Shown here: positions 249 through 20,451 of the stretch, piece after piece
Position numbering within the stretch: the first letter of the stretch is position 1
Layout: each line of letters begins with the position of its first letter
Source: a virus
Taxonomy: Duplodnaviria; Caudoviricetes
Length of the DNA: 45,881 nt
Virus record (IMG/VR): IMGVR_UViG_3300033416_000011
Span: 1-45,881 of that record
Strand: one strand, 5' to 3'
The notes under the pieces: model-generated
The model's input: the letters and a program-made list of their open reading frames with translations, nothing else
Told to the model about the DNA's origin: nothing
The model's database searches: none
Position numbers and translations under genes: made by a program

Positions 249-1849
249 AGCCATCCTCCTAACTCGTAAGCAACATCCATTTGTAAAATTACTGTACGGG
301 TATACCCACTACCCTTAGCAGCCACTGCTACTGTGGCACCCTGCCCTTGCGCTCCGAACACCTGGGTCTGAGCTACGTATTGTGGGCCCCACTTTGATTG
401 GTCCCACCTTGATTGGTCCCAGGTGCCGACTAGGCTTGTAGCTACTGGAGTAGTGAGAGCCGCTACTGCTTCGCCCATATCCAAGTCATACTTGGCTTCA
501 GCCACCGCGGAAGTCGGGCCACTCTGCGTGAGCAAGTGAAGCTTGATCTCTTGTACACACTTTTGGGAGGGTGTTTCGTAGCTGCTAAAAGCAGATAAGA
601 AGCTCCATTCGATAGGCTGGTACGCGTTGGGATTGGCCAATAGTACGTTATCTAGCGTACCGTCATTCACGCAGACTCTACCGTCCGCGGTGCCGAAATA
701 CAGGGTGCCGTTCCACGCAGTAGCACAGGCCCCGATCGGCAGTTTCCGGTATCGGTGCCACCCTTTAGTAGTCAGACTCATCACTAGCTGTGTAGAGTCG
801 GTGACACCTCCAGCATTAGGCACGAGCACCATCAGCACAGCATCCTTGGGGTGCAGGCACATGGCCCAGCCTCGCATATTCACCGTGCTGGCTTGCAGCT
901 GGCTGAATAGGCGCGCTATCAGATTGGTCTGATACTGTCGGTCTACGTTAGTTAACATTAATTTGCTTAGCGGGGAGATTCCCAGCGAGCTCATCACTAG
1001 TAGGTCACCTCCGTAGTCAGCGCATAGCCTACGTCCTACGGGCACTGCCCCTACGTAACACGTACCGACGTTACCGAAAGTCGATGCGTTGCTGGGGTCT
1101 GTGCCTGCGTACACGGCTACGTCACCACCCCCGCTTATAGCAACTAGCTGATCGTCTAGAGCGGAGCCAGGGTCCAACGCCCAACTCCATAGCCCCCGCA
1201 AATCGCCGCCATTTCGAAAACGCACCCCGAAATCGAATATCGTAGCCGCACCGCCTACAGCATTTACCCCTAGATAGTAGGCCTCGCCAGAGTCTCTTTT
1301 TACGAGCCACACCCGGTTTTTCCAAACGTGCACGTACACCAATTCCGCGGGATCGACTCCAGTCACAGGGGCACCTGGCGGGCCCCCAAACGTCCAACTA
1401 TTATCTGACTCTCTGTATACCCAGTACCCGTTCTGCTCGTCAGTATAGCACAGCCAGTGACCAGCACTATTTGCTACTACCGTGCTGGTGCCCCAACCGC
1501 TAGTATCACTCGTAGTCGGGAAAGCGAGCACTCGCGTAGGGGATGCCGTTTGACCGGTTACATCCCAGATGCCCGAATACGTGCAGGCGAAAAGCCTGTT
1601 CATGGAAGGCTTACTTCCAGTGAACGGAAGCAGCGACCGAACTGGACCGTCTAGGTCAGTACACCACTCGTACCAACCGCTTCGAGTTTGCAGGCCATGC
1701 TCACCATGAATGAGGTTGTAGCTGAATACGCTATTCACCATTGGCGTATTGGTGCCTACGTCAGTAGTGTTATCACCTCCAATTGGAGCTAGGATAGTGC
1801 GTAGCAGCCGCCTCTCTCGCTGGTATCGGCCAGGGCTAGGCGCGCGCAT
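245..1849 (-). CDS. Tail tubular / DNA stabilisation (nozzle-like) protein
   Basis: ~534 aa, beta-propeller-like W/Y/G-rich sequence, directly after the adaptor gene. C-terminal WDQSRWDQSKW motif. Probable start is ATG 1849 (TGATG overlap). Confidence 0.7.
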   Translation of the reverse strand: MRAPSPGRYQRERRLLRTILAPIGGDNTTDVGTNTPMVNSVFSYNLIHGEHGLQTRSGWYEWCTDLDGPVRSLLPFTGSKPSMNRLFACTYSGIWDVTGQTASPTRVLAFPTTSDTSGWGTSTVVANSAGHWLCYTDEQNGYWVYRESDNSWTFGGPPGAPVTGVDPAELVYVHVWKNRVWLVKRDSGEAYYLGVNAVGGAATIFDFGVRFRNGGDLRGLWSWALDPGSALDDQLVAISGGGDVAVYAGTDPSNASTFGNVGTCYVGAVPVGRRLCADYGGDLLVMSSLGISPLSKLMLTNVDRQYQTNLIARLFSQLQASTVNMRGWAMCLHPKDAVLMVLVPNAGGVTDSTQLVMSLTTKGWHRYRKLPIGACATAWNGTLYFGTADGRVCVNDGTLDNVLLANPNAYQPIEWSFLSAFSSYETPSQKCVQEIKLHLLTQSGPTSAVAEAKYDLDMGEAVAALTTPVATSLVGTWDQSRWDQSKWGPQYVAQTQVFGAQGQGATVAVAAKGSGYTRTVILQMDVAYELGGWL

Positions 1850-3090
1850 CAAGACCACCCCGTGAAAGGCACATTGTTCCAATCTACCCAATCTACGAAC
1901 CGAATAGCGTTCTGGGGGCCAACTCCGTTGAGGGATAGGGTGGGCGCCCCCTTGTTGTTTCCGATAGCGTTCTGCAAGGCTTCTTGGTACCGCGCCTGCG
2001 CCATCAACGTATCTCTACCTTTCACCTCTAGATAGATTACGTTCAGTGCGTATTTGATAAGTAGTGGATCGAACAAGACTAAGTCTGTAGCCAGTGTTGG
2101 GGCACTTAGGTCGGGCGAGCTCGCTATAGCGCTCTTGACCCAGTACTTGCTAGCGTATTCAAAGGCCAACACCGTGCCGTTCGGGGGTACGATCGGGAAC
2201 GTTAACGCGCTACCCTTCAACGCATAAGTGATGTAGATTGATACGTTGTCTAACTGTGCAACCATCTGCTGGCGACTTTGCGGTGTAACAGGGCCTATCA
2301 GGGGATACCTTCCGGACCTGTTCCAACCTGTGTTATCGAGCATGCCCCGATAATCCGTAGGCATCGCGTAAGCCTGCAAGCTGCCACTAGTAGTAAGGGT
2401 TGCCTCTCGTATCAGGTGTCTCCATGCAAAAGCATCGAGCACCTGCTGGCCAGCCTCTCCCAGCCTGGCCACAAGCTGTACGAAATTGGGGTCCACGCCA
2501 TCGAAAGGGTCTGCCCTGGCAGCCAGGCCGCAGCGCACAGCTACCCAGTTTACGATATCACCAGCAGTTGCATAGATACTGTAGTCCAGTGCCAGCGCAC
2601 TTGGAGTAATAGCCCCCAGTGCTGTTACAGGACTAATCACATCGTACAACTCGACAAGGCCTAGCTTTACTACGTACTCGATGGCAGTGTACGCACTTCC
2701 GGTCCAATCCCAGCTGAAGAAGTACAGACCGTCACCTGCCTCGGTTATAGTTGGGGGTGGCAGGGCTGCATGCGTATCAGCGCGTGCAAATGTGGTGAAT
2801 GCAGGTGACCCACCAGCGTTCACCGTGCCGAAAAACATACCGTACACGTTCAGTGGATTGGGGGCGAGTACGTCCCAGACCTCGACCCCGTTACACGTGG
2901 CCACGTACTCAACGCCCGTAACCGTGCTAGTGCCCCAGTCCCAACTGAAACTGTACAGCCCCCCACCAATTTCAGTGATAGCAGGGGCTGTTATGGCTGC
3001 GTGCGTATCCGCGCGTGCAAAACGTGCAAAGACAGGTGTCTTGCCTGCATTGTCACTGCCGAAGAATAGCTCGTATACGGTAGCAGCCAT
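1849..3090 (-). CDS. Head-tail adaptor (tail tubular A-like) with two N-terminal tandem repeat domains
   Basis: C-terminal ~240 aa (W.HLIRE, YAMPTDY, FEYASKYWV, D.VLFD) fits podophage adaptor proteins. Synteny supports the call. Confidence 0.7.
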   Translation of the reverse strand: MAATVYELFFGSDNAGKTPVFARFARADTHAAITAPAITEIGGGLYSFSWDWGTSTVTGVEYVATCNGVEVWDVLAPNPLNVYGMFFGTVNAGGSPAFTTFARADTHAALPPPTITEAGDGLYFFSWDWTGSAYTAIEYVVKLGLVELYDVISPVTALGAITPSALALDYSIYATAGDIVNWVAVRCGLAARADPFDGVDPNFVQLVARLGEAGQQVLDAFAWRHLIREATLTTSGSLQAYAMPTDYRGMLDNTGWNRSGRYPLIGPVTPQSRQQMVAQLDNVSIYITYALKGSALTFPIVPPNGTVLAFEYASKYWVKSAIASSPDLSAPTLATDLVLFDPLLIKYALNVIYLEVKGRDTLMAQARYQEALQNAIGNNKGAPTLSLNGVGPQNAIRFVDWVDWNNVPFTGWS

Positions 3091-4545: not shown

Positions 4546-5520
4546 CTAGGTGTGAATCATTCGCCCGCAGTAACGTGGCCCACCGCTAGTGGCGTTGCCC
4601 GCCCAAACCATGATCTGGACTACGGCGTCCTGGTTCACCGCCCAGCGCTTGGCAGGATCGAGAGACACGAATTGACGGTCCTTGTGCGGACGCAGCTTGA
4701 AATGCTTGGTGTTGAGGAAGAACATCGTACCGTTGGTGTCAGAGAGGAATCCGCCGATACCGCCATCGAGCACCACATCCGCGCCCAGGAACGCTACAGA
4801 TTTGAAGCCCAGGTCTGCCTTGTCTGTGCTTGTGAAACGCTGTATCGCCTGCAGTGAATTGACGAAAGCAGCGTAGTACGAAGTCGAGGCCAGAATGAGA
4901 TCGGGGGACTCGGTACCACACTGCAACTTAGAGTACAGGCTGGTCATTCGAGCCTGTATCGTCGTAGCACTAGGGGCCCCCGAGTCAGACTGCAGAGCAG
5001 ACCGCCAGAACGTGTTAGACACTCGATCGATGCCACCATATGTGCCCGTTGCGGGATTGATAGGCACCGCCAGGTCCAGGCCGGTAAGCTGTCGACCGCC
5101 GTAGCCCGTGCCGTCCGAGTAGATGCCCTCGGCGACAAAGTTTCTCATCGTGTCCTCAGCAACCTGAATGCGGCTTGCCATGAGGTCAATTATGGCCTCT
5201 TTGCCGCTATTTCGCAGCTGATCGAGGCCTGGAAGCACTACCGCCGTGGCCAACTGTTTCCACGGAAAGTGCGCCGCGGAAATGACATCTACAGCGCCAA
5301 CGGACAAGGTATCCATTCCAGAATACCAAGCCGTGTTGCTGTTTTCGGCGAAAGACAGCGGCTCAAGAATTTCGGCACCGCCGTCAGCTATCTCTTTTAC
5401 ACCGCCACGCTGATCGATGTACACCAAAAGCGCGTTGTTTTTGATCACGTTGCTCGTGACCTGCTTCGCACGATAATCAATCGTGGTCGCTAGAATATCG
5501 GACAAATACGGAAAAGCCAT
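4546..5520 (-). CDS. Major capsid protein
   Basis: 324 aa. Motifs NSGKEAIIDLM, IYSDGTG, YGGIDR...FW, GF..V.F.GADVVLDGG, FLNT, NQDA match a widespread podophage capsid family. Follows the scaffold gene. Confidence 0.9.
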   Translation of the reverse strand: MAFPYLSDILATTIDYRAKQVTSNVIKNNALLVYIDQRGGVKEIADGGAEILEPLSFAENSNTAWYSGMDTLSVGAVDVISAAHFPWKQLATAVVLPGLDQLRNSGKEAIIDLMASRIQVAEDTMRNFVAEGIYSDGTGYGGRQLTGLDLAVPINPATGTYGGIDRVSNTFWRSALQSDSGAPSATTIQARMTSLYSKLQCGTESPDLILASTSYYAAFVNSLQAIQRFTSTDKADLGFKSVAFLGADVVLDGGIGGFLSDTNGTMFFLNTKHFKLRPHKDRQFVSLDPAKRWAVNQDAVVQIMVWAGNATSGGPRYCGRMIHT

Positions 5521-5523
5521 ATG

Positions 5524-5750
5524 CCCTCACTGTGAAAGGGTTAGTGTACTATTAGTGCGTGTCTATCGCGTCGATACGTGTTCACGTATTCGCGTGTACA
5601 GTGAGTCGGCTACCTAGAGCTCTCACGTGGCTTGCCTTGGATTGGCAGCAGTGAACTCTGTACGCAGATATCCGGTAAACGCAACGAGTCGGCCTGGAGG
5701 CTCTCGCTAAGCTCGGCTACTGTGTACTCGGAGTAACCAGCTACACCCTT
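5524..5750 (-). ncRNA. Structured 5' leader of the major capsid gene
   Basis: Three hairpins (5567-5594, 5601-5626, 5685-5706) have different stems but the same A/CGA internal loop. A further hairpin overlaps the RBS. Confidence 0.6.
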
Positions 5751-5760
5751 AGCTACTTGA

Positions 5761-5789
5761 GCCCTAGCACGAGCATATATAGGAGTCAA
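5761..5789 (-). promoter_or_regulatory. Putative sigma-70-type promoter for the capsid operon
   Basis: Minus strand TTGACT-17 nt-TAGGGC with an extended TG, directly downstream of the terminator. The -10 is a weak match. Confidence 0.45.
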
Positions 5790-5798
5790 TACTTCAGC

Positions 5799-5835
5799 AA
5801 CAAAGATGCCCGCTTTTTAGGGCGGGCATCTCTTT
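5799..5835 (-). terminator. Rho-independent terminator after the scaffold gene (possibly bidirectional)
   Basis: Minus strand AGATGCCCGC-CCTAAAAA-GCGGGCATCT followed by TTGTT; 10-bp perfect stem. Confidence 0.75.
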
Positions 5836-5877
5836 AACCGGGGACAGCCATTGAGTTGGCGGTAGTACTAGTCTACT

Positions 5878-5945
5878 ACACTCCAGTCATCGGCCAAAAT
5901 TGGTTGTGTCCGCAATCCGTACCCACGGAACACTCCAGTCATCGG
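5878..5945. repeat. 16-bp direct repeat ACACTCCAGTCATCGG x2 with a 36-bp spacer
   Basis: Exact copies at 5878-5893 and 5930-5945. Confidence 0.9.
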
Positions 5946-6018: not shown

Positions 6019-7134
6019 CTATTTTTTGCGCTGTGCCACCTCGTCCCAAACTTGTCGAAGTATGCCCTCCCTATCCTCGAATTTGTGTTCTTTCACAGGG
6101 GCGCCGCCCTGGGCCCCCGTAGTTCGCAGCGTAGCCCCGGCGGCCTTTCGCGCAGGATTCCGAGTCGCAGCTTGTGCAGCTTTGCGTTGGGCCACCACTT
6201 TTTCGACAGCGGGATTCATTTTGCACGCTAAGTCATAGGCTTGCTCGTACGTGATAGGCTTCTTTCTAGCCTCGTACGTATTGAGCACCGTAATCATGTC
6301 GTCCCAAACGTCCTCAAGGAATTCGGGTGACTTCTCTTCACAAAACTTCTCGAATTTGTCCTGCATGTTCTGCAGGGCTTCACTGTGCCTGTGCTCCTGC
6401 AGTTCTTTCTGCACAAGGGCTTTTACATCGGGTGCAGCTGCTTGTGGCTTAGCCGCGGCCTGTTGCACGGGCTGACCGTAGGCCCCACTAGCCATTACTG
6501 CGTTCACCGAAGCCGGATCGCTGAACTGCGCCAACAGGCCCGCAATTATTTGAGCCTTGCGCAGTGGGGAGCCCATGTGTAACTCTTGGTACGCGTTCAT
6601 CACCGAGGCTATGCCCGAGAACGGATCTAAACCTTGCGGTCGAAAAATAGCATCGTAGGGCTTTACAAAGTTTGCCACCTCAGCGGCAAACTCCTGTTGC
6701 TGTCCCACGGTGCCACGGAGGGAGGCGTTTTCTTGCAGTGTCTTTCGAGTTTCCCTCTCTACCCGTGTCACTTCCTGCTTCACCTCTGGGGGGAGGCCAG
6801 CCCACTTCTCGCGAGCTCCAGGCGTCCATGATTGGGGGGCTCGATCGACTTTGTCCGTAGCAGTCAGCTTCCCCTGCGTCTCGGCCTTTGCCTTAGCGGG
6901 CTCGCTTTTGCGCCCAGTCTGTGCACTGGCCTCCTGTACCTCTTCAGGTACACTGTCGGAGGGTTCGCCGCTGGCGTCGTCTACTTGTGCTGCGCCCAGC
7001 TCGTCAGTCTGCGTATCATCAGGGATGCCGCTCGGTGCACCACTCGAGTCGTCAGACTGCTTATCGTCTTGCCCAGTGCGAGCGTCCAGTTGTGTACGCA
7101 GCGTATCTTCCAAACTCTTGTCCTCAGTTGCCAT
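6019..7134 (-). CDS. Capsid scaffolding protein
   Basis: Acidic disordered N-terminus, APQSW...W..LP..V..E..R.E motif, YEQAYDLAC..NP motif. Lies between portal and capsid genes. Confidence 0.8.
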   Translation of the reverse strand: MATEDKSLEDTLRTQLDARTGQDDKQSDDSSGAPSGIPDDTQTDELGAAQVDDASGEPSDSVPEEVQEASAQTGRKSEPAKAKAETQGKLTATDKVDRAPQSWTPGAREKWAGLPPEVKQEVTRVERETRKTLQENASLRGTVGQQQEFAAEVANFVKPYDAIFRPQGLDPFSGIASVMNAYQELHMGSPLRKAQIIAGLLAQFSDPASVNAVMASGAYGQPVQQAAAKPQAAAPDVKALVQKELQEHRHSEALQNMQDKFEKFCEEKSPEFLEDVWDDMITVLNTYEARKKPITYEQAYDLACKMNPAVEKVVAQRKAAQAATRNPARKAAGATLRTTGAQGGAPVKEHKFEDREGILRQVWDEVAQRKK

Positions 7135-7705: not shown

Positions 7706-7966
7706 TCATCGAGCCAGTACCCTTGGCACACGGGCCGTAGGTAGCCCAGCATATTTACGTTCTGCGCTAGTTATAAGCGTATTCAGCTCTCGTAGTTCAC
7801 TTCGATCGTGCGATGTAGCAAGGCCAGTGGCGATCTTCAACGTAAGTTTACGGTGCGACGCATATAGATTTGCTATATGCCTACGCGCTACTTTGCGCCC
7901 TAGCCTATCCCTGCGTTCTAGCTCGGACTCATCCAACAACATATCGGCCTCACGTAGGAGCGACAA
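7706..7966 (-). CDS. Hypothetical protein
   Basis: 86 aa ORF filling the gap after the portal gene, on the operon strand. Confidence 0.5.
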   Translation of the reverse strand: MSLLREADMLLDESELERRDRLGRKVARRHIANLYASHRKLTLKIATGLATSHDRSELRELNTLITSAERKYAGLPTARVPRVLAR

Positions 7967-10034
7967 CGATAGGGGGCAGACCCCTAGTTATGGATTTTAC
8001 CGCCTGTTCATCCCTACGGCTAAGTGCATCGTATTTAGCGTCAGTGGCCCGTGTGACCACCTCTTTCTGTGTCTCAGCAGCTATCTCAGCCAGCCTTCCC
8101 TGAGTTTCAGCGGCTGTGACGGCTATGTCACTCCGTGTCTTCGCTGCCTGTTCAACAGCCTTGGCATCGGGAGTAGGAGCCTGAGCTATCGGGGGCGCAG
8201 AAGCTAACCTCTCAACCTGTTGCGTAAACGTATCGAACGCTCCCTCAATCTCAGTCGCAGCAGGCAGCGCAGCTACGTACCACTTAGCCGCGTCTAGCAC
8301 GAACCGTAAAGCTGAAGACAGCGCAGCAGGGCCCTGCTGAGAGGCTAGCGATAGTAGCGGCATCATCGAAGAGAAATACGACCCAATGCCTGTCAGTACC
8401 TCAATTCGCTGAGCCTTCAGCCAGGCTAGACTCTGAGTAGACAGCTGCTCAGGGCGCACCAGTACCCGCATACTCAGCTGCCCGCTTTTCAGCAGCTCTA
8501 CCGCGCGTACGGCTCGCTGATACCCTTCTGGCGTCTGGCATTCCTGCGTAAGCAGTATGTTGCTCTGGCTTAACATAGAGTCAACGCTGAAATTTTTCGC
8601 TATCATCTCCAGACGTATTTGCTGCAAGTCTGCAATGAACCGCGCTATCTCTAGCTGTATACAGCGCAGTCTCACCGAAGCAAATTCGGCCTTAATGGCA
8701 GTCGTAGTCGCAGTCTCTGCCAACACCTGTTGCCCGCGTAAAATATCAGATAGGCCAGTTATCTGGTACACGCTGTTTATCAAGTCGTTCCGCTGTTGCA
8801 CCAACACAACGAGTGCTTGCACTTGCGGCTCAATAGGTAGCAGGTCGACCGAGCCCTTGAGCCCCCCTCGCTCCATGAACGAGGCCCAGTTATCCACGGG
8901 TATAAGCCTGTTCTCGTTAACTTCGCTTAGCAGGTCTTCGAGCTTCCCCTGGCTCCTATCGTATGTGCCGGTCACGCGTATCGATGCTACGATCGCAGTT
9001 ATACGGGAGGTCAATGCATCAATCTGCCTATACTGGTCCTTCGCGTACTGATAGTCAGGGATAGGGGTTAACGACACTGTTGGCGCATTGGCCATCAACG
9101 GCGCAGGGAACGGGAAGAATCCACTTAGCCCCAGCGGGTCCTCCCCAGTTGGATTGTCCAGATGCGAAAGCGTAGCCGTAGCGCTGTCTACGTACCAATG
9201 CACCATACGGTGCTCTTTATCCCAGATTTCCCAGACCTCGGTGCGCTTGTTAGACTCTGGGTCTAAGCCCAGCACGCCCAGTGTGTTATCACCGAAGGCT
9301 TCCACTATCTGCTTCGAGCTCATGCAGGTTTTAAAAGCGAACCAGCGCACTTCGCCCCAAGTTTTCGAAGGGCTCCACAGCTGGTCTCTCCAGTGCGAAT
9401 AGACCACCTCTATACGCTCATTCGTAGCTACTTCAGTTTCGGGAACAGGTGGTGCCACCTCTCGAGCTACCGCCCCCGTACCACCGCACAAAGCGCAGGG
9501 AACAGGACTCGCCTCCGACTCAGGCACAGGGGTGTATTGCTGCGATAGGCTGTCGCAGGTACACGGCTCTTGCGCTGTGATAGCCTCTACCGCAGGTACC
9601 GTGTTGTAGTCTGCCTCATATACCGCGCGAGCTAGCCCAAAGCCAGCCACGAGCCGGTCTAACGTGAGCTGGTTCAACGCTGAGTTGAATGCACCCCGCT
9701 CGTCTTCCAGGCCCCTGTTCAACAGTCTTTTAGCTATTAGCGAAGCAAGCCTAGCGTCATCATCGTCTGGGTCGTCAAACTGCCGCTTCACTTCGCAGGA
9801 GGGGGCCGAACTGAACAGAATCGCATGCTGTAGCTGCACCCCCGAAGCGAATAGGTTTAGTTGCGTTTCGGCATCCTCTAGACCTCTGCTAAGAGTGTAC
9901 ACTTTATCAACACTCTCAGCAGCGCTTTTCCAGCTATCGACACCCCTCCAATTAGTCTTGGAGTCAGGCTCACGTGCGGATTTGAATTCGTTTTTCCAGT
10001 AGCTTGCCCACTGAGCGGGTGATTTAGCTTCCAC
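7950..10034 (-). CDS. Portal protein
   Basis: 694 aa. Motifs VWEIWDK, DPLGL.GFFPFP.PL, PIPDY, YQITGLSDILRG, ETAT...IKA.FAS.RL. Confidence 0.9.
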   Translation of the reverse strand: MEAKSPAQWASYWKNEFKSAREPDSKTNWRGVDSWKSAAESVDKVYTLSRGLEDAETQLNLFASGVQLQHAILFSSAPSCEVKRQFDDPDDDDARLASLIAKRLLNRGLEDERGAFNSALNQLTLDRLVAGFGLARAVYEADYNTVPAVEAITAQEPCTCDSLSQQYTPVPESEASPVPCALCGGTGAVAREVAPPVPETEVATNERIEVVYSHWRDQLWSPSKTWGEVRWFAFKTCMSSKQIVEAFGDNTLGVLGLDPESNKRTEVWEIWDKEHRMVHWYVDSATATLSHLDNPTGEDPLGLSGFFPFPAPLMANAPTVSLTPIPDYQYAKDQYRQIDALTSRITAIVASIRVTGTYDRSQGKLEDLLSEVNENRLIPVDNWASFMERGGLKGSVDLLPIEPQVQALVVLVQQRNDLINSVYQITGLSDILRGQQVLAETATTTAIKAEFASVRLRCIQLEIARFIADLQQIRLEMIAKNFSVDSMLSQSNILLTQECQTPEGYQRAVRAVELLKSGQLSMRVLVRPEQLSTQSLAWLKAQRIEVLTGIGSYFSSMMPLLSLASQQGPAALSSALRFVLDAAKWYVAALPAATEIEGAFDTFTQQVERLASAPPIAQAPTPDAKAVEQAAKTRSDIAVTAAETQGRLAEIAAETQKEVVTRATDAKYDALSRRDEQAVKSITRGLPPIVVAPT

Positions 10035-20421: not shown

Positions 20422-20451
20422 TTGACACGCCAGCGTAAGGAATGCTACAAG
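20422..20451 (+). promoter_or_regulatory. Putative sigma-70-type rightward promoter for the replication arm
   Basis: TTGACA-18 nt-TACAAG with an extended TG. An ATG lies 7 nt after the -10, so the mRNA could be leaderless. Confidence 0.55.

Follow-up and report, generated by a model that had tools for sequence, protein, structure and literature searches.

The window analysed here, a stretch of 45,881 nucleotides, is a complete virus record with podophage head genes on the minus strand, in the order terminase, portal, a 188-aa ORF, a 371-aa protein and the major capsid gene. The capsid protein showed 50-54% identity with its counterparts in Myxococcus phages Mx8 and Mx9 (50-53% for these two) and in Stenotrophomonas phage BUCT555, and the order of portal, small ORF, 371-aa-type gene and capsid is common to the window, Mx8 and Mx9. 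A 413-aa tail protein, also on the minus strand (1849-3090), carries an N-terminal tandem duplication of about 78 residues before its phrog_6013 domain. The features leading to the capsid gene are listed below in the direction of transcription.

7950-10034, minus strand: portal gene of the head-gene block
6019..7134, minus strand: scaffold-like protein, 371 aa, named from gene order and helical fold
6724..6840, minus strand: conserved helix-turn-long-helix segment of this protein (residues 99-137), candidate RNA-binding part
6760-6762 and 6745-6747, minus strand: codons of residue 125 (Val) and residue 130 (Arg), which track the loop middle base
5798..5836, minus strand: terminator-like hairpin (-21.5 kcal/mol), putatively separating the scaffold-like gene from the capsid leader
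5761..5789, minus strand: putative promoter-like site, with -35 TTGACT, 17 nt and TAGGGC (extended -10 without the -7 T)
5682..5709, minus strand: looped hairpin H1, an extra copy, with A 5702 opposite CGA 5691-5689 (predicted P about 0.97)
5601..5626, minus strand: switch hairpin H2, with A 5621 opposite CGA 5608-5606; homologue of hairpin A of Mx8-type leaders
5598..5605, minus strand: anti-SD strand, i.e. the 3' arm of H2 plus 3 nt; mutually exclusive with H2
5567..5594, minus strand: looped hairpin H3, compatible with both states; homologue of P3 of Mx8-type leaders
5526..5533, minus strand: SD-containing strand, whose 8-bp pairing with the anti-SD forms the OFF helix
5524..5540, minus strand: H4, a weak local hairpin over the SD (-6.0 kcal/mol alone), mainly in the ON state
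4546..5520, minus strand: major capsid protein (NF033394 capsid_maj_Podo / phrog_9953)

The 371-aa protein matched no named family in PHROGs, Pfam or NCBIfam. A match named 'Scaffolding protein' in BFVD was weak (E 0.23), and the Atlas value of 0.88 lay below its threshold. From gene order and helical fold we infer that it is the scaffold.

Through a descriptor search (outer stem of at least 4 Watson-Crick pairs, a single A, inner stem of at least 3 pairs, CGA), we found exactly three matches in the 45,881 bases of both strands, all in the capsid leader; these are the three minus-strand A/CGA hairpins which the preliminary description had claimed there. Among 3000 dinucleotide shuffles of the 240-nt leader, one match appeared in a single shuffle and never more, and in a look-elsewhere control counting any identical 1x3 loop, two copies were reached in 0 of 600 shuffles. 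The folding z-score of the whole leader was uninformative (-0.68). The outer stem of H1 reaches 7 bp, two G-U pairs included, and the middle loop base is G in all three hairpins. The loop had been described as invariant and closed by G-C; the outer G-C pair is indeed invariant, but the inner closing pair is G-C, G-C and A-U. That the RNA structure is real appears to us virtually certain. On the 5' side of H1, positions 5707-5752 (minus strand) hold a possible degenerate fourth loop copy, which shares TAGCCGA with H2 and whose outer stem pairs poorly.

The leader had not been recognised as a named RNA family, and Rfam 15 agreed with this, giving 0 matches at or above the gathering score in the window; GP20-a (RF02991) and GP20-b (RF03003) were among the families searched. 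A scan by E-value gave just five weak matches (E 1.2-7.1), and weak Thr_leader matches coincided with the terminator-like hairpin at 5798-5836. Two sets of related loci (20 and 16) had no Rfam match either.

The leader was also said to lie between a terminator plus promoter and the capsid ATG. The hairpin of -21.5 kcal/mol and the promoter-like match agree with this, but a consensus scan for terminators and promoters reported neither site (0 and 0). The promoter pattern was matched in 7 of 88 capsid gaps, the window included, and a terminator with promoter is a plausible feature of the window phage and a minority of its relatives. In Mx8-type relatives the loop begins 4-56 nt past the scaffold stop (37 leaders), and the window switch sits 500 nt from that stop, behind the terminator-like hairpin. 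The same promoter-like form, TTGAC-N14-TGCTA, recurs on the plus strand at 20422 and 20995, where the rightward replication genes begin; both sites lack the T at -7. Between scaffold stop and terminator there is an exact 16-nt direct repeat (5930-5945 and 5878-5893, minus strand, 52 nt apart), with no further copy at up to 3 mismatches; it overlaps a 32-codon ORF, and DDWSV is read in two frames.

Comparison with other phages placed the loop in a conserved leader module. Among 153 distinct capsid-bearing loci, the closest relatives of the window (L127 and L125) share the A/CGA hairpin before the capsid gene. When all 1x3 loops were counted in 79 non-redundant gaps, the general form was R-A-N on the short strand and N'-Y-N-A-Y' on the long strand; the loop occurs in either orientation, and G-C and A-U interchange at the R-Y' pair. 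The strict form GA/Y[CG]AC was present in 31 of the 79 gaps and absent from 48, with 37 matches against 0-3 in 20 shuffled sets. At 150 loci found through their proteins, sense-strand matches numbered 61 and 33 in the two 100-nt bins before the capsid start, against mostly 2-11 per bin elsewhere and 7 and 3 on the antisense strand. The loop is enriched solely in the 200 nt before the capsid start, on the coding strand; at the scaffold start, 1100 to 1400 nt ahead of the capsid start and covered by 115-120 loci in each bin, it stays at background.

Searches made without regard to the capsid gave a similar location. With one DNA pattern, 45 of 59 matches lay just before a capsid homologue, and with a second, derived from window H2 alone, 18 of 32 IMG/VR matches lay 86-119 nt before one. 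A covariance model of 35 relatives (R1), from which the window was excluded, ranked window 5518-5630 first (E 8e-7) and recovered H1 as its second match in the window (E 0.015). The loop is conserved in relatives, as a leader family of Mx8-like podophages with a variable middle base; its sequence is not invariant across the family, CGA being one of four middle-base states and CCA the commonest. The first three pairs on each side of the hairpin-A loop contained 6 G-U and 0 A-C, which favours coding-strand RNA, weakly, because the stems were selected with G-U allowed. Other searches were less productive: a first DNA pattern with 14 fixed bases was dropped as too loose (about 1900 stretches), a scan with a single capsid protein gave one locus and no loop, and an A/G-directed pattern gave 120 loci, 40 of them without flanks, which together with four genome loci contained the capsid in 13 of 124 cases, 2 of them new.

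The Mx8-type leader consists of looped hairpin A, P2, looped P3, a strand pairing with the P2 loop (pseudoknot) and the SD, in this order, and the SD region is a second pairing partner for the 3' arm of hairpin A. Hairpin-A counts cover 38 of the 48 Mx8-type leaders, 9 without a script-found hairpin A and L303 being excluded. In these 38 leaders the cognate duplex of anti-SD and tail averaged -13.9 kcal/mol versus -8.4 for non-cognate pairs, a value met in 0 of 100,000 permutations, and the distal 8 nt of the duplex alone gave the same 0 of 100,000. The P2-loop pseudoknot passed the same permutation test (cognate -9.4 versus -5.3; 48 leaders). In a MAFFT alignment of 35 rows, read with the structure of one row, a choice that favours this structure, double changes were found in 8 of 8 OFF-helix pairs and 7 of 8 hairpin-A pairs; in slid controls pairing dropped from 81% for the blocking helix and 91% for hairpin A to 31-53%. 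The looped hairpin and the SD-blocking helix share a strand and both covary, and a two-state switch in this family is therefore very probable.

Folding predictions place the switch in the OFF position when unbound. With the pseudoknot domain blocked, hairpin A was disfavoured in 35 of 38 leaders (median 6.1), and with it enforced the ribosome site became easier to open by over 1 kcal/mol in 31 leaders (median 12.1 to 7.6), the gain being 1 kcal/mol or less in the other 7. When RNAfold was run without the pseudoknot the switch signal was weaker, with the SD more open in 25 of 39.

The window contains the hairpin A with its anti-SD arm (H2) and the P3 with the same loop base (H3); H1 is added upstream, and P2 with its pseudoknot is deleted, which makes this leader a reduced variant carrying one more copy. 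The duplex between 5598-5605 and 5526-5533 (-13.0 kcal/mol) is part of its minimum-energy fold, and unbound H2 was disfavoured by 2.5-3.5 kcal/mol in folding prediction. The fourth hairpin proposed over the ribosome-binding site exists at 5524-5540 (H4) but is predicted to be minor (P 0.006-0.18), and it was rejected as the main ribosome-site block in favour of the stronger 8-bp helix. When H1, H2 and H3 were enforced, the opening cost of the ribosome site changed only from 8.5 to 8.2 kcal/mol, and the unpaired probability of the SD only from 0.06-0.13 to 0.17-0.23. In these folding models the ON state hardly opens the ribosome site of the window because H4 and other pairings replace the block.

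Several relatives arrange the loop in other ways. L153, L151, L180, L204 and their kin have a different leader, in which a flipped loop encloses a standard loop; in this large L153-type clade the 3' arm of the inner hairpin has an alternative pairing, and a long helix adjoins the SD. In Mx9 (L002, 2357-2503), hairpin A contains a nested, flipped third copy of the loop. In L003 (BUCT555), L147, L158 and L168 the long strand takes the form of a terminal loop of five bases, CUNAC, downstream of a clear promoter; by eye, the N of this loop varies while the scaffold keeps Arg. Two or three hairpins with an eight-base terminal loop A-N-U-C-A-M-G-C were seen in L144, L162, L217, L250, L261 and L430, of which L217 and L162 have a non-Arg residue at the specificity column. 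Extra loop hairpins also occur in the 3' end of the scaffold gene, at the following positions from the capsid start: L125 (-291), L321 (-180), L357 (-193), L359 (-209), L353 (-218) and L360 (-241). Their middle base equals that of the gap loops in 13 of 15 script matches, although some of these matches are gap loops next to a stop that was mis-called.

The middle base of the loop led to the probable partner. In all 38 leaders it was identical in both loops (C in 26, A in 10, G in 2; permutation mean 20.5), and the first loop base matched in 29 and differed in 9. Each middle-base state turns up in scattered parts of the capsid tree, suggesting that the reader is encoded by the phage and changes with the base. 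We screened the columns of the capsid (104 sequences) and of the scaffold (93 sequences; 318 columns) against the middle base. Scaffold column 125 showed a corrected MI of 0.55, compared with a shuffled-label maximum of 0.23 and 0.20 for the best capsid column. No capsid column covaries with the middle base, and the capsid was set aside as loop binder for this reason.

The final table of 103, in which the A/G labels were partly assigned by eye and the G label of L319, L348 and L349 was taken from P3 and a flipped loop with no script-found hairpin A, contained 82 cases of C with Arg, one of C with non-Arg, one of U with Arg, 12 of A with non-Arg and 7 of G with non-Arg. Residue 125 is Arg in 83 of 84 C/U-type leaders and non-Arg in 19 of 19 A/G-type leaders; the exception is L175, with C loops and Leu at 125. 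The capsid tree shows 12-13 changes, and the independent well-supported pairs agreed in 6 of 6 cases (p 0.03). Among residues first read once the rule was set, 16 of 16 C-type were Arg and 4 of 4 A/G-type were non-Arg, with L349 being close kin of a discovery row. A basic residue 130 accompanied all 7 G-type leaders, 3 of the 12 A-type leaders and none of the 83 C-type ones; the pair test for this residue was not significant (p 0.125). Arg125 is preserved across six synonymous codons. Arg is common as well in relatives that lack the loop: 33 new loci included 17 without a called loop and one mixed, and 14 combined no called loop with Arg. L464 (His), which by eye has a sub-threshold G loop, was the only non-Arg among these loopless or mixed cases. 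Since Arg is the default even for leaders in which no loop is seen, C with Arg is by itself weak evidence.

In the AlphaFold model (77 sequences, pLDDT 91.5), residues 125 and 130 lie near the start of a 52-residue helix which follows a short helix. The candidate segment is all-helical, with no conserved Cys or His. Its profile was matched by 6293 clusters at 50% identity, and a word-index search with scaffold residues 90-230 found the protein of the window alone. Searches of solved structures with the segment gave one sequence match at E 0.09, no Foldseek match, and generic coiled coils with Z of at most 5.0.

The preliminary description proposed a protein-binding RNA module controlling capsid translation, for example through feedback by scaffold or coat. 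The scaffold half of this proposal gained support from the residue-base covariation, and the coat half did not, having no covarying column; as for feedback repression, the leader anatomy points instead to activation through the anti-SD switch. From the covariation in the sequences, the scaffold is quite likely the binder of the loop RNA. Since the middle base tracks a scaffold residue and the looped hairpin doubles as a ribosome-site block, the scaffold likely switches the capsid on; we hold with some confidence that free scaffold-like protein binds the repeated 1x3 loops and so turns capsid translation on. In unbound RNA, the anti-SD would pair with the SD region and capsid translation would be off. 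H1 and H3 would be docking sites available at all times, raising the local scaffold concentration; capture of H2 by the scaffold would withdraw the anti-SD, and ribosomes could load. Segment 99-137 would contact the loop, with Arg125 selecting C or U and a basic residue 130 accompanying G. When scaffold is consumed into procapsids the signal would fall, so that coat protein would be made just while unassembled scaffold is available. This would limit scaffold-free aberrant shells, in keeping with P22 biology.

The scaffold might also bind the loops with another outcome, namely to repress, to stabilise the mRNA, or to tether the capsid mRNA so that nascent coat is caught. This would produce the same concordance within leaders and the same covariation with residue 125, and it suits the weak predicted opening of the ribosome site in the window, the P22 scaffold acting on its own synthesis, the loop in the different leader architectures of other clades, and the extra loop copies within scaffold 3' ends of several relatives. 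We nevertheless regard it as unlikely, considering that the loop hairpin and the SD block share a covarying strand and that 31 of 38 relatives open more easily: one strand serves both, and stabilising the loop hairpin must therefore remove that block. More doubtful still is a reading of the loop by another phage protein (portal, small head product or capsid) or by a host factor, the scaffold residue covarying indirectly by contact or linkage. The covariation screen covered two proteins, scaffold and capsid, and the scaffold gene adjoins the leader and is co-inherited with it; but no other of the 318 scaffold columns, and no capsid column, comes close to residue 125, whose link with the loop holds through about 12 separate changes, and a host factor would leave the phage-specific concerted change of both loops unexplained.

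Activation by the scaffold was further weighed against two explanations in which no protein reads the loop. The leader could be a kinetic switch, or be remodelled by ribosomes finishing the scaffold gene: the looped hairpin is the first to fold during transcription, and its 5' arm includes the stop codon of the scaffold gene in 5 of 37 leaders, with the bulged A 4 nt after the first base of the stop. The fixed loop, its two or three copies, the concordance within leaders and the residue covariation are not explained in this way, and the window switch is 500 nt away from the scaffold stop, behind the terminator-like hairpin, which makes a ligand-free leader very improbable. The covariation could finally reflect RNA-RNA pairing of codon 125 in the scaffold mRNA with the loop, since the second codon base could pair with the middle base in all but one of the 67 C-type cases, in 13 of the 15 cases of A/G-type and in the single U-type case. 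However, the neighbouring codon base was U, as the invariant loop A would need, in 0 of 83; six synonymous Arg codons are used, Thr and His occur with A loops, and a single codon is unable to pair with two or three loops. We give this pairing hardly any credence.

The leader is real, conserved and mechanistically specific. In the literature searched, largely outside subscription papers, neither this leader nor scaffold activation of capsid translation is described. What is known of the control of the coat/scaffold ratio in tailed phages comes mainly from P22, whose scaffold acts on its own production; scaffold activation, if true, would be a second circuit of opposite sign, with a named RNA site and a named residue. 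Site and residue are present in the cultured phage Mx8 of Myxococcus xanthus, a harmless laboratory bacterium, and natural specificity variants exist as C, U, A and G loops with matching scaffolds. Several orphan head-gene leader RNAs gain a possible partner from this finding, which could also yield small orthogonal protein-RNA ON switches. More tentatively, and with slightly less than even confidence, we might speculate that the scaffold of Mx8-like podophages is an RNA-binding, sequence-specific translational activator of the capsid gene, with a one-residue/one-base recognition code reset about 12 times, and that scaffold-RNA sensing is general in P22-like viruses.

The loop was compared with known RNA motifs of similar form. 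The kink-turn has tandem G-A pairs, and the commonest loop form, CCA, has none; among 38 leaders the middle base was C in 26 cases and A in 10. The IC3 GNRA receptor has two C-G pairs before a UAA strand and a GNRA partner; the A-type loop resembles it and is of similar size, but the long strand mostly has G-C before the loop, the loop is mostly CCA, and the hairpin loops are variable with no conserved GNRA partner. The C-loop is an asymmetric loop of similar size with crossed non-canonical pairs making two triples and a U-A closing pair; in the leaders the closing pair is G-C in 36 and A-U in 2 of 38. Unlike these three motifs, the leader loop is orientation-free, its middle base is tied to a protein residue, and its closing pair interchanges between G-C and A-U. 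GP20-a and GP20-b are likewise predicted cis-RNAs before phage head genes, with no Rfam match in the window leader. According to the table rows of Fremin et al. 2023 (PMC10690425), on which this comparison is based, DNAVirus_5613 is a predicted cis-RNA of 86 nt with 259 sequences, found 52 times within 25 nt of capsid_maj_Podo genes, the capsid family of the window; these rows give no switch or partner, and DNAVirus_5613 may contain part of the leader RNA.

Among regulators of head proteins, P22 gp8 represses its own gene, with a target at the start of that gene. Its autoregulation was reportedly described by Wyckoff and Casjens in 1985. In the accessible part of a later study (10.1101/2022.12.13.520362), the N-terminus of the P22 scaffold is implicated in translational autoregulation; the likeness, as far as that part goes, would be a scaffolding protein whose N-terminal part acts on translation, balancing the head proteins. 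The head genes of the Mx8 lineage share ancestry and gene order with P22 according to the portion consulted of PMC10386132, and the available portion of PMC12005531 contains nothing on regulation. P22 gp8 controls its own gene, whereas in the window the downstream capsid gene would be targeted, with a predicted positive sign, a defined loop and a specificity residue, and no loop enrichment was found at the scaffold start, which would correspond to the target in P22. Com of phage Mu activates mom by binding a hairpin beside an inhibitory structure and exposing the start signals (PMC6483171, accessible part), and the proposed action of the scaffold on the capsid leader would resemble this. Com is a zinc-finger protein dedicated to activation and has a single hairpin site, whereas the candidate here is an assembly protein with a helical segment and the putative site is a 1x3 internal loop in two or three copies, the anti-SD being an arm of the hairpin that would be bound. 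Com-like unblocking of the start is predicted for 31 of 38 relatives and is marginal in the window. In the proposed model the capsid leader would combine a Com-mom-like action with a gp8-like regulator; it is a member of neither system.
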